From: an uncultured Chlamydiae bacterium
GTDB taxonomy: Bacteria > Chlamydiota > Chlamydiia > Chlamydiales > SM23-39
Assembly (NCBI GenBank): GCA_963828125.1
Contig: CAWHDP010000002.1
Coordinates: 1,720,394-1,784,393, forward strand
DNA length: 64,000 nucleotides
Direction: 5' to 3'
The notes under the pieces: generated by a model
What the model saw: only the letters and a program-made list of their open reading frames with translations
What the model was told of the DNA's origin: nothing
Databases searched by the model: none
Part shown: positions 56,439 through 59,386 of the stretch, one piece after another
Layout: each line of letters opens with the position of its first letter
Numbering within the stretch: position 1 is the stretch's first letter
Made by a program: the position numbers and the translations under genes

Positions 56439-56500
56439 TAGCCCGCATTTCTCACACATCCGCGGAAAATCTGCTCAATCTGTGTGAGAAATGCAGGCTC
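56439..56500. mobile_element. family-A element, internally deleted (A4)
   Basis: TAgcccgcatttctcacacatccgcggaaaatctgctcaatctgtgtgagaaatgcaggctc. Equals A3 with a deletion between two tctgt direct repeats. Overlaps the last ~8 codons and the stop of the ankyrin-SET gene. Confidence 0.8.
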
Positions 56501-58082
56501 GATCGTTTACGGTTTGAAGATGATTCCATACTTTTAAAAAAGGTTCTTCTAGCAAAGAGGCGTTGATCTCGGATAGTTGCCCAAGGGCTTTTATTTTTTT
56601 TAATAGGAATTGATTGGTGTTTGTCGCAACAATCAAAACAGTTTTAATACCTGTTCTGGACGGGAGACGCTTAAAATATTCTTCATAGGCTGAGGCGGCT
56701 TTAGAAGAATACGTCCGGACTCCTTCCCTGACCTCGATGCACTCCAAAGCCGTATTGAGAAGCTGTTGTGCATCTATTTTCGCTTGAGTATGAAGAGCGT
56801 CAAAGAGAGAAATCATCTTCGCAAGTTCTGTCGCTTTTTCCTTGTTCAACGTCCCGTCGAAAATCATTGAAAAATAGACCGATAGAGTTTCCAAAATATA
56901 CCGAAATTTTTCGGCCAAAGCCACTTGATTGAAGTCAAGATCGCCCGTGGCACCACGGACGAATAGGTAACGTCCCAATTCAGCAATATCGTGCTGTTGA
57001 ATGAAATCTCTAACCTCTTTTGGCCGGAGTTCTGCATAAGGCCCATACTTAACGGCGTGTTTGCCGTAATGCCAACAAAACTGTTCTCCTGGTGCAATGG
57101 GGTTTGTGGCAACTAGGACACGGCGGTCATGAACTCCTTGTAGATCTCCAATATGGAGCAAGGCCGTATTGGGGAACCCATCGTTGATTTGCGGGATCTC
57201 ATTTCTAAATTCCAGACTGTCTATTGGACCTAGCACGTAGGGGTTATGGATCTCCCGATGGGTCAGCACACCTTTATAGTCTCCGATGAAGCTTTGCGAC
57301 TCAATAGAGTTCTTAGCAAAAAGGCCGAGTCCGGGGCTGCATACTAACCTGCTACCGACAGAGTCGTGAGTCACTCTGGACAAAATATGCATCACAGGAA
57401 TATGCCGCGTATATCTATTCCTAAATTGATCTGTGAATGGGAACACCTCAGGCAGCGAGCCAACCTCAAACAAACGGTGCTTAGGAATCTGGTGTTCATC
57501 AATGAAAGTCGCCCTTGTGAGTTCCTGAAATTTTCCCCGAGTCAACACTGTTTCTGCCCCTTGCTCATCTCTCCAAATCACCCCAATGAGCGCCTGGGGA
57601 TCGTTCAATGGGGACTTGACTAGATTTAAAACATCCGTGTAGCTTCCCCCCTGTCTGGTCAAACAAGCGGGGTCGGCCCCTCGACTGAGCAAGTACTTGA
57701 TCATTTGAGCATCGGATCCCAAGGCAGCCATATGGAGCGGCGTCCACTTCGTCGAATCTGCGGCATTGAGATCGGCGCCAGCTTCCACCAACCTAGTCAC
57801 AGCCCCCTGGTTTTTAAAAATCACTCCTATATGAAGGGGGGTGAGCCCTCTGCTATTCAAAGGTTCATTCAATCTAGAGCGCCCTGCCAATGGGATTGCA
57901 AAATCTACGACGGCATCGATCCCTTCCAAAATAGCCGCATTCAAAGCGGCGATGGATACCGATAGGTCATACTTTGGTTTTTTGAAGTTTTTTTGACTAC
58001 GCTCCTTTTCAAGCTCTAATTGCTCCCAGATATTTTTTTTCAATCCGGTCACAAACGGATCATGACCTTTTATTTCGTTCAT
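56475..58082 (-). CDS. eukaryote-like ankyrin-repeat + SET-domain protein (putative secreted lysine methyltransferase)
   Basis: 535 aa. Ankyrin repeats at aa ~45-140 (GLTPLHIGVIF...AGADLNA...WTPLHMAALG...GADP). SET domain at aa ~240-345 (SPGLGLFAKNSIESQSFIGDYKGVL, QINDGFPNTAL, PGEQFCWHYG). Confidence 0.75.
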   Translation of the reverse strand: MNEIKGHDPFVTGLKKNIWEQLELEKERSQKNFKKPKYDLSVSIAALNAAILEGIDAVVDFAIPLAGRSRLNEPLNSRGLTPLHIGVIFKNQGAVTRLVEAGADLNAADSTKWTPLHMAALGSDAQMIKYLLSRGADPACLTRQGGSYTDVLNLVKSPLNDPQALIGVIWRDEQGAETVLTRGKFQELTRATFIDEHQIPKHRLFEVGSLPEVFPFTDQFRNRYTRHIPVMHILSRVTHDSVGSRLVCSPGLGLFAKNSIESQSFIGDYKGVLTHREIHNPYVLGPIDSLEFRNEIPQINDGFPNTALLHIGDLQGVHDRRVLVATNPIAPGEQFCWHYGKHAVKYGPYAELRPKEVRDFIQQHDIAELGRYLFVRGATGDLDFNQVALAEKFRYILETLSVYFSMIFDGTLNKEKATELAKMISLFDALHTQAKIDAQQLLNTALECIEVREGVRTYSSKAASAYEEYFKRLPSRTGIKTVLIVATNTNQFLLKKIKALGQLSEINASLLEEPFLKVWNHLQTVNDRACISHTD

Positions 58083-59386
58083 ATGCCATGCCTCACAGGA
58101 TGGTGAGGGCCTAATTCAAAAAATCGCTGCTGGAGTGTTATATTGCTTTCCAGCTGACGGAGGACATGTCGAGCTGGATGAATCAATGCTTGTAGCAAGG
58201 GCTCTTCTACGTTCTGATCGTTGATACGCCACTCGTTGTGAATGGGCTGCTCTCTGTAGCGCTCCATCCTCTCTGTCCATTCTCTTAATTTCACGCTAAA
58301 AAACAACACTTTCTTGCGAGCCAATGTATTAATTTTTTTCATTTCATCCTGCGGCGAACATTCAATTAAGCTGCGATATAAAGAAAGGTATTTATCGAGA
58401 ACCATCCGATTTGCAATGAAGCCGTCAGTTCCCCAGGGACCATAATCATTAAACAAACTGCATCTATGAGGCAGTTTATCGAGCTCTTGTATGCTGGCTC
58501 TGATCTGCGAGGCCCTTTCAGCAATAGGGAGAGAGCGATCCGGCGGATGAATAGAGAGAACCGCTTGTTTGGTTTTAACAAAATTCAGCACCCTCCAGAA
58601 ATTTAAAACAAGCTGGCGTCGATTGAGATCTAGCGACAGATTATCGGGCGCTGCATCTATCAGGTTGATTTCAAACATAAATGTCTTGAGGAGGGGGATA
58701 AATGCTTCGATATCGGCCAATTGGTACTGAGGACGTATCCGATCCAAACAGATTCCGTATTCTTTAGCTCGAATATAGTTAGTTTCTGTTCCTGCTGTAT
58801 AATCGTATCGAAAGCCGCCGGATGGATGATTCCGTACCAACGCTAGGTATGCTTCATGGATTTCTTTAAAACGCCCAGGAGCGCCTCCCTTATCCGGATG
58901 GTGTTTCAGCGCCAGATCTTTATATCGCTTTTTTACCTCTGTTGGACTGGCACTGGAATTTAATCCGAGCACTTCAAGGTGGGCATTCGCAGAAAAATCT
59001 CCTGTTGCGCTTTTGTCCTGCGGCAGAGGGCAAGAATAATCGTTGGTCCCTGGTTCTTCCGGCATCGTTTTCATCACACGCTCAAACCAAAGCTGCCACC
59101 GCATATCTTTAGGCCGAGTCAGCCTCGGAGGAGAGGCCGAATGTCTTGCAATAAAAATGTGCCGTGAAGAGAGAGGTCTGGAGTGACCCGGTTGATCTAC
59201 ATATAACTGGGGCCTCTGGCCCTGCCAGAAGAAAATCCGCGGACCCGAAGCGTGCATATACATATATGGAGATCTCCCAGTGGCCACTCTCTCTCCACGA
59301 TTCCGAATCGTATCTTCCACCTTGTTACTTTCTAGCCGCACGATCTTTCTCTCTCGTTGTGTTGGATTTTTGCATCGACAAATCAA
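58079..59386 (-). CDS. J-domain (DnaJ-like) protein with an unknown C-terminal domain
   Basis: J domain LEVLGLNSSASPTEVKKRYKDLALKHHPDKGG...FKEIHEAYLAL (aa ~135-185 of the ORF). ATGA overlap with the ankyrin-SET gene. The start is uncertain: TTG at 59386, or ATGs at 59263, 59104 or 59074. Confidence 0.7.
   Translation of the reverse strand: MICRCKNPTQRERKIVRLESNKVEDTIRNRGERVATGRSPYMYMHASGPRIFFWQGQRPQLYVDQPGHSRPLSSRHIFIARHSASPPRLTRPKDMRWQLWFERVMKTMPEEPGTNDYSCPLPQDKSATGDFSANAHLEVLGLNSSASPTEVKKRYKDLALKHHPDKGGAPGRFKEIHEAYLALVRNHPSGGFRYDYTAGTETNYIRAKEYGICLDRIRPQYQLADIEAFIPLLKTFMFEINLIDAAPDNLSLDLNRRQLVLNFWRVLNFVKTKQAVLSIHPPDRSLPIAERASQIRASIQELDKLPHRCSLFNDYGPWGTDGFIANRMVLDKYLSLYRSLIECSPQDEMKKINTLARKKVLFFSVKLREWTERMERYREQPIHNEWRINDQNVEEPLLQALIHPARHVLRQLESNITLQQRFFELGPHHPVRHGI

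Follow-up and report, generated by a model that had tools for sequence, protein, structure and literature searches.

RomA/LegAS4 of Legionella pneumophila is a Dot/Icm effector that joins a SET domain to ankyrin repeats and methylates lysine 14 of histone H3 (PDB 5czy, 8sr6), and its ankyrin repeats bind the H3 tail and are indispensable for activity (PMC10653858). Among the Chlamydiae, NUE (CT737) is a type III secreted histone methyltransferase with a SET domain (PMC3980110). In Pseudomonas syringae, the J domain of the type III effector HopI1 binds plant Hsp70, whose ATPase it stimulates and whose location in the cell it changes (PMC8150971). RomA and NUE serve as models of a pathogen rewriting host lysine methylation, and HopI1 as a model of Hsp70 hijack. 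NUE/cpnSET are short SET-only proteins conserved across Chlamydia, and for a chlamydia the expected secretion route would be of type III and not Dot/Icm. Here we describe a pair of adjoining genes in a 64,000-nucleotide (nt) stretch of DNA from an uncultured Chlamydiae bacterium (contig CAWHDP010000002.1). This whole stretch is called the window, all positions are counted within it unless another contig is named, and both genes lie on its minus strand. The first gene encodes a J-domain protein (the J partner), and the second encodes a protein with ankyrin repeats followed by a SET domain (AnkSET). On sequence grounds, we lean towards reading the two proteins as halves of a chaperone-coupled lysine methyltransferase unit that would most probably be delivered into a eukaryotic host.

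Both open reading frames (ORFs) are present on the minus strand where an earlier sequence-only reading of this DNA had placed them, and the overlap it described between the J stop codon and the AnkSET start codon is found at their junction:

58079-59104, minus strand: J-partner gene, likeliest extent 341 amino acids (aa) from M95; alternative start M105 at 59074.
56475-58082, minus strand: AnkSET gene, 535 aa from an ATG start, taken from the ORF list and supported by an identical protein annotated in a Chlamydiales metagenome-assembled genome (MAG).
58079-58082, minus strand: ATGA in which the stop of the J gene and the start of the AnkSET gene overlap, read from the sequence, with a Shine-Dalgarno (SD)-like GAGG at 58091-58094.

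The J ORF ends in CAT GGC ATA TGA, the AnkSET start (ATG AAC) begins within those letters, and the GAGG sits 8 nt 5' of the AnkSET ATG. From this layout, the two genes would be co-transcribed and co-translated. The extent to 59386 that had been given for the J ORF holds as a mechanical limit (58079-59386, 435 aa counted from a TTG at 59386), but not as the start of the gene. Similarity to the orthologous J protein of a Parachlamydiales locus, L003, is first seen at W97 of the window J ORF, the codon-position GC content typical of both genes (0.55/0.38/0.45) is not present upstream of 59104, and the NCBI annotation of the J protein is 331 aa long. Because of these three observations, we place the true start probably at M95 (59104) or M105 (59074). 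A long N-terminal extension, with starts at 59386 or 59263, was rejected because neither homology nor coding-type codon-position GC was found there.

AnkSET belongs to a sizeable family. A 535-aa protein identical to it is annotated on a contig of up to 1.9 Mb in Chlamydiales bacterium MAG GCA_049688295.1, and our first search returned 15 full-length relatives with 33-44% identity. With an exhaustive profile search, the number of cluster representatives rose to 127 at E<=1e-30 (491 at E<=1e-10). Most representatives share the architecture of AnkSET, being 500-580 aa long with a match that sets in near residue 150-190. When one genome per species was scanned, eight loci were found, all in MAGs: five bear chlamydial labels (Parachlamydiales, Parachlamydiaceae, Rhabdochlamydiaceae, Chlamydiota or Chlamydiae), one bears the label Verrucomicrobiae, and two bear only that of 'uncultured bacterium'. 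Among the genome matches with chlamydial labels, AnkSET was seen only in environmental chlamydial MAGs. A scan of metagenomes returned one locus only, a duplicate of L016. All relatives derive from MAGs and short assemblies; sequence identity within the family is 28-47%, and its distribution is patchy.

The evidence that the two genes belong together comes from other genomes. Of 14 distinct loci, 6 have an ORF with a J domain and its HPD motif directly 5' of AnkSET, namely the window, L003/L004/L011 (Parachlamydiales), L006/L012, L009, L010, and L016/L019. L010 is a frameshifted long-read contig, and the other five are intact. At the intact junctions the genes overlap as ATGA in the window, L006, and L016 (-4 nt each) and are separated by 2 nt in L003 (+2) and by 1 nt in L009 (+1), with an SD-like purine run upstream in each case. 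The flanking genes differ from locus to locus and are unrelated. With J genes few per genome, adjacency in 6 of 14 loci would be a negligible chance outcome.

The two modules are also found within single proteins. Ten of the 150 best representatives exceed 800 aa. Nine of them (822-1613 aa, fusions that rest on single Logan contigs) were scanned, and in all nine Pfam recognises, on the C-terminal side of AnkSET, a DnaJ domain in which HPD is kept. One of these fusions, P0136, can be aligned with the window J protein through the J domain and on into the post-J region as far as an LDK motif (E 1e-12), and therefore it is the whole J partner that is fused there and not a generic J domain. For two fusions, on contigs of 17 kb, the surrounding genes are compactly arranged in a manner typical of bacteria, and a eukaryotic or viral origin of the fusions was rejected on this ground. 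The tenth member longer than 800 aa, P0205 (982 aa), is without a J domain and has SET-like modules twice in its chain (LNDGPPN and ITDGFPN). A further arrangement is found in L023, an unfused sister of P0136, where AnkSET shares a 1-nt overlap with a separate gene behind it, which encodes a DWSY/WNDG domain (E 3e-14). This is the domain that precedes J in the fusions, and the contig stops short of any J domain. Neighbour-joining trees, rough as they are, place the fusions in about three clades next to one another and the J-AnkSET operons on several other deep branches.

Overlaps of 4 nt are common between bacterial operon neighbours, unrelated ones included, and a single ATGA is unremarkable; its recurrence in other lineages, together with the fusions, goes beyond chance. 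That the two genes are neighbours without any functional link, as the frequency of such overlaps might suggest, is extremely improbable, contradicted as it is by six loci with different flanks, nine fusions, and a reverse-order split. The same two modules are linked in three arrangements (J followed by AnkSET, AnkSET followed by a J partner, and fusion), and this gene-neighbourhood and Rosetta-stone evidence speaks for a shared function and probably for a physical complex. The earlier proposal that the J and AnkSET genes belong together has gained a tight junction in five other loci and nine fusions, and we consider functional coupling of the two proteins highly probable.

The AnkSET protein can be divided into the following parts:

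57642-57947, minus strand: ankyrin repeats, about three, aa 46-147 (Pfam Ank, Ank_2, and Ank_4; PDB ankyrin matches).
57333-57605, minus strand: region N-terminal of the SET core, aa 160-250 (confident AlphaFold beta-hairpin and helices; E196 invariant).
57063-57332, minus strand: SET domain, aa 251-340 (Pfam, family profile against the PDB, Foldseek, invariant columns).
57315-57332, minus strand: SET motif GLGLFA.
57168-57188, minus strand: SET motif INDGFPN.
57063-57080, minus strand: SET motif FCWHYG, with Tyr339.
56478-57023, minus strand: C-terminal helical domain, aa 354-535 (nine helices with a high predicted local distance difference test score, pLDDT; AEKFRYILET at 56886-56915).

The ankyrin repeats are recognised readily (Pfam Ank, E=2e-12). 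The Pfam SET model covers full-length AnkSET over the whole 105-position profile at 21.0 bits, just below its cut-off of 22.4, and the trimmed protein at exactly 22.4 bits; 13 of the 15 family members match it (best 1.8e-8). The profile match is borderline for the single sequence and clear for the family. Full-length searches, by sequence against the PDB and by fold, gave ankyrin proteins only. Because the ankyrin repeats swamped these searches, the family was trimmed to residue 160 onward (alignment A3; aa 160-535). The trimmed family profile matched SET domains only in the PDB: MLL1 (1e-5), EZH2 (1e-4), RomA (1.6e-3), LegAS4 (1.8e-3), and SETD8 (3e-3). An AlphaFold model of aa 160-535 had a pLDDT of 85.5 and a predicted template modelling score of 0.85, and its best 50 Foldseek matches in the PDB were all SET lysine methyltransferases at probability 1.0, including ATXR5 (1.2e-5), ASH1L, G9a/GLP, SETD2, and SUV39H2. 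Giant-virus SET proteins match the model too. As modelled, AnkSET recovers a SET fold. Pfam, the family profile, and the predicted fold all agree with the SET domain and ankyrin repeats that had been read from the letters, and the comparison with SET folds, a check named beforehand and run here on aa 160-535, returned SET proteins alone among its best 50 PDB matches. After the SET core, K345 and E351-L352-R353 are invariant and P348 and Y349 nearly so. The nine-helix C-terminal domain that follows (180 aa) has the conserved motif AEKFRYILxTP and gave no Pfam family and no significant PDB match.

We then compared the module with described SET proteins. AnkSET resembles RomA/LegAS4 in combining SET and ankyrin in a protein of an intracellular bacterium, in keeping the Asn and the catalytic Tyr, and in having a SET domain detectably related to theirs (E 1.6e-3 to 1.8e-3). 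RomA/LegAS4 have an N-terminal SET domain and six C-terminal ankyrin repeats, whereas in the window about three repeats are N-terminal and SET follows. AnkSET also differs from RomA in its extra 180-aa helical C-terminal domain, in a Pro at the equivalent of Arg178, and in an Asp in place of the NH His, and RomA is without a J-domain partner. Orthology to RomA/LegAS4 was rejected on the reversed domain order and on a match weaker than those to MLL1 (1e-5) and EZH2 (1e-4). The comparison with RomA/LegAS4 drawn in the sequence-only reading survives as an analogy but not as membership, given that order and a SET domain nearer MLL1/EZH2.

NUE/cpnSET are likewise SET-domain proteins of Chlamydiae; going by their descriptions, the AnkSET family is set apart from them by its ankyrin repeats, its helical C-terminal domain, and its J partner. 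G9a/GLP (EHMT2/EHMT1) share the order of ankyrin then SET, and their SET domains are among the best structural matches. AnkSET differs from them in being without the cysteine-rich pre-SET and post-SET zinc clusters and in having another C-terminal domain, with 12-24% identity over the aligned SET core. The claim that no SET methyltransferase with a J-domain partner was known fits our search of the full-text literature, in which no bacterial J-domain/SET pairing was found described. The sole precedent found for a SET protein working with a partner reportedly mentioned as a J-domain protein is the interaction of ADMETOS (ADM) with SUVH9 in Arabidopsis (PMC5558928). The two are eukaryotic and encoded by separate, unlinked genes, SUVH9 is catalytically inactive, and there is no homology to the window proteins beyond the domain classes.

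The active-site region of AnkSET is atypical and strongly conserved. Among 16 aligned members, G251, G253, Y269, G271, N300, D301, G302, F303, N305, and Y339 are invariant. In the alignment to MLL1, GLGLFA pairs with GRGLF, GDYKG with EYAG, INDGFPN with INHSCEPN, and FCWHYG with LTYDYK, which locates the two unusual motifs, INDGFPN and FCWHYG, that had been noticed in place of the canonical ones. The GxG cofactor motif and the Tyr of (E)Y(x)G are present in AnkSET, both across the 16 sequences and in the MLL1 alignment. At the ELxF/YDY-type motif, the invariant Tyr339 pairs with the last Tyr of MLL1 ELTYDY, and the F/Y-switch position is a nearly invariant Trp337. The RFINHxCxPN motif is kept in part: Asn300 and Asn305 are retained, and His, Cys, and Arg are replaced by Asp301, Phe303, and Pro297, respectively. 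Among 155 representatives, xNDGFPN is dominant, INHSFPN (one member), INCSFPN, and INRSFPN are rare, and the residue after the motif Asn varies across the wider family (D, R, S, C, H).

Because G251/G253, Y269, N300, and Y339 are invariant in all 16 members, the active-site-like positions appear to be under selection, and AnkSET looks like a divergent yet strongly constrained SET subfamily, not a decaying one. This constraint bears on the alternative that SET catalysis has been lost, that the domain serves as a binding module, and that the real activity of the pair is Hsp70 recruitment. Such a scaffold would suit the NDGFPN that stands for NHxCxPN, the Pro at the equivalent of RomA Arg178, and the variable residue after the motif Asn, and it would resemble the interaction of ADM with the catalytically inactive SUVH9 in Arabidopsis (PMC5558928). 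We nevertheless regard it as very doubtful, as GxG, Y269, N300, and Y339 are kept as expected of a working cofactor and lysine pocket.

The J partner contributes two recognisable parts:

58826-58987, minus strand: J domain, with HPD at 58892-58900 inside KHHPDKGG (Pfam DnaJ; PDB J domains).
58352-58819, minus strand: post-J region (alignment A4; no Pfam family), containing DKYLSLYRSLIE at 58361-58396.

Pfam DnaJ matches the window J protein at E=5.8e-12 (46 bits, cut-off 27.8), well in line with the J domain and the HPD motif inside KHHPDKGG that had been reported, and the PDB J-domain matches include DNAJB12 (4.9e-8) and E. coli DnaJ (1.2e-7). HPD, residues 163-165 of the J ORF, is kept in 6 of 6 neighbouring J proteins and in 9 of 9 fusions. 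Because Pfam and NCBIfam recognise the J domain only, the window J protein is a class-C J protein; matches to the NCBIfam DnaJ models are confined to the J segment and score far under the cut-offs. Assignment to class A/B DnaJ (Hsp40 proper) was rejected, as Pfam finds the J domain alone and not the Gly/Phe-rich region, zinc finger, and DnaJ C-terminal domain of those classes.

Alignment A4, which holds the J partners of the window, L003, L009, L010, and L016, showed that they are built alike: the N-terminus is variable, a PDFxSNDP lead-in comes before the J domain, and a post-J region follows it. The post-J motif is DKYLSLxRSLxE with the invariant core DKxxxLxRxxxE. In the window it reads DKYLSLYRSLIE, of which D, K, L, R, and the final E fall among the seven invariant columns of this five-sequence alignment. 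The L003 partner is 36% identical to the window J protein and the other partners 18-26%, and word-indexed searches with the J partner returned almost nothing besides the query and one known neighbour. The L006 partner differs in that its own ankyrin repeats after the J domain replace the usual post-J region (4172-6004 of that locus); it still retains the J domain although the remainder differs. A domain of ~100 aa without a Pfam family (IGxxLxxxDIG, DWSY, WNDGxW) precedes J in some J partners and fusions (L009 4302-5999, L016 1764-3533, L023 2799-3533, and residues 583-674 of P0136), and the window J protein does not have it. An F-box suspected by eye in the L016 J protein was discarded, as Pfam finds none.

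A J domain has one established activity: its HPD docks on Hsp70, ATP is hydrolysed, and a client is captured at a defined place. Our reading of the pair as a chaperone-coupled methyltransferase was made because of this activity. The course of events that we infer, from physical association and methyltransferase activity to secretion, the Hsp70 used, and the substrate modified, would be as follows. The ankyrin repeats, perhaps with the helical C-terminal domain, would hold or select a protein substrate, and the divergent SET domain would move a methyl group from S-adenosylmethionine onto a lysine. The HPD-bearing J domain would dock on an Hsp70, most likely host Hsc70/Hsp70, and trigger ATP hydrolysis, and the conserved post-J region would tie the J protein to the methyltransferase. 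The Hsp70 brought to the enzyme in this way might remodel the target and thereby give access to the lysine, might itself be the substrate, or might act as a folding helper of the enzyme. We offer only tentatively, as a somewhat unlikely refinement, that the J domain is part of the catalytic logic and recruits host Hsp70 either as substrate or to expose, by ATP-driven remodelling, a lysine buried in a host complex. That Hsp70 is what becomes methylated is less likely still. Lysine methylation of Hsp70 at K561 is established in human cells, where the responsible enzyme is debated (PMC3658001, PMC4915027).

The folding-helper option can also be taken as a complete explanation, in which the J protein is a private co-chaperone that only folds or refolds AnkSET, for example after type III translocation, and Hsp70 stays outside methylation. 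Tight 1:1 translational coupling and the fusions would suit such a dedicated helper, and J proteins classically hand clients to Hsp70 (PMC8150971). The AlphaFold model of AnkSET is compact and confidently folded, however, eight loci have no adjacent J gene, and a folding helper permanently fused to its client would be unusual. We judge this explanation quite unlikely.

A host-directed role seems the likeliest one for the pair because of its chlamydial source, its eukaryote-like domains, its patchy distribution, its fast divergence, and its effector-like neighbours, which across the AnkSET loci include F-box, RING, and kinase genes. This evidence is circumstantial, and on it we consider host direction reasonably probable. 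HopI1 provides a parallel, as an example of how a bacterial J domain can be directed at the host. Going by its description, HopI1 differs in that its J domain is C-terminal and linked to no enzyme, whereas here J is coupled or fused to a predicted methyltransferase; no similarity between HopI1 and the window J protein is expected outside the J domain. By analogy, the module would combine the manner of working of RomA/LegAS4 with that of HopI1, as a member of neither family.

The pair could instead act inside the chlamydial cell, with DnaK and on a bacterial protein, as cpnSET acts on Hc1. This alternative has in its favour that cpnSET is found mainly in chlamydial cells and methylates the histone-like Hc1 (PMC3980110), and that for the window J domain E. 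coli DnaJ is nearly as good a match as human DNAJB12. An internal function fits poorly with the patchy distribution, the fast divergence (28-47% identity), and the variable genomic position of the module, and ankyrin repeats and F-box, RING, and kinase neighbours are typical of host-directed and not of housekeeping proteins. We therefore think an internal function unlikely.

Several observations weigh against a host-directed, chaperone-coupled methyltransferase. The canonical NH His is an Asp in AnkSET and the position of the RomA active-site Arg aligns with Pro297; through these two changes, catalysis could be altered or lost. The J domain resembles bacterial and eukaryotic J domains about equally and therefore gives no hint of which Hsp70 is used. 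The J gene is absent next to AnkSET in 8 of the 14 loci (L005, L007, L008, L013, L014, L015, L017, and L018), and therefore AnkSET can exist without an adjacent J partner. The order of the modules is AnkSET-J in the fusions as against J-AnkSET in the window operon, and the history of the module is therefore not a simple split. Finally, promoter and terminator scans did no better than on shuffled sequence.

The genes surrounding the module were also surveyed. In the window, a LuxR/GerE-type regulator (55501-56337, minus strand) lies 137 nt 3' of AnkSET on the same strand, and a frameshifted homolog of it occurs just 5' of the J gene in L010 (2644-3523), making it a possible recurrent neighbour. 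Apart from this LuxR-type gene in one further locus, none of the other window neighbours is conserved beside the module. At the Parachlamydiales locus, the AnkSET stop lies in a 4-nt overlap with a DUF294 gene of 833 aa (L003 7641-10142, L004 4194-6695), which makes a three-gene coupled unit there, and a RING-finger gene lies further downstream. In L015, from a Rhabdochlamydiaceae MAG, tandem ORFs of 297 and 341 aa (1491-3464) sit directly 5' of a J-less AnkSET; they look paralogous by eye, have hydrophobic N-terminal segments and no Pfam family, and may be like inclusion-membrane (Inc) proteins. In L018, from a Parachlamydiaceae MAG, an F-box protein (343-1233) lies 5' of a frameshifted or split AnkSET gene.

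Elsewhere in the window, positions 48000-52000 form an island of low GC content (0.37-0.42 against ~0.52 around it) with two minus-strand ORFs without a Pfam family, at 47645-49450 (601 aa) and 49553-51499 (648 aa); these may be lineage-specific effector or inclusion-membrane genes. GC content is ~0.45 over 56000-64000, compared with ~0.52 upstream in the window, and this part holds mostly ORFs without a family assignment. One of the ORFs there, of 526 aa (60472-62052, minus strand), has a borderline match to 2H-SAK phosphoesterases (27.1 bits, cut-off 27) and no NCBIfam match.

If the J domain were part of the catalytic logic in either of the two ways considered, the pair would be the first protein methyltransferase coupled to a chaperone, and it would occur both split and fused across environmental Chlamydiae. 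The conserved joining of SET and J predicts that recruiting Hsp70 and methylating proteins are mechanistically linked in a direct way, a link of which we found no description; if Hsp70 were the substrate, the unit would constitute a bacterial writer of Hsp70 lysine methylation. The NDGFPN motif and the Trp switch depart from the canon and are nonetheless strongly conserved, which could widen the concept of a working SET domain. With 127 representatives at E<=1e-30, the module also marks out a large and uncharacterised family of effector-like proteins in environmental chlamydiae.

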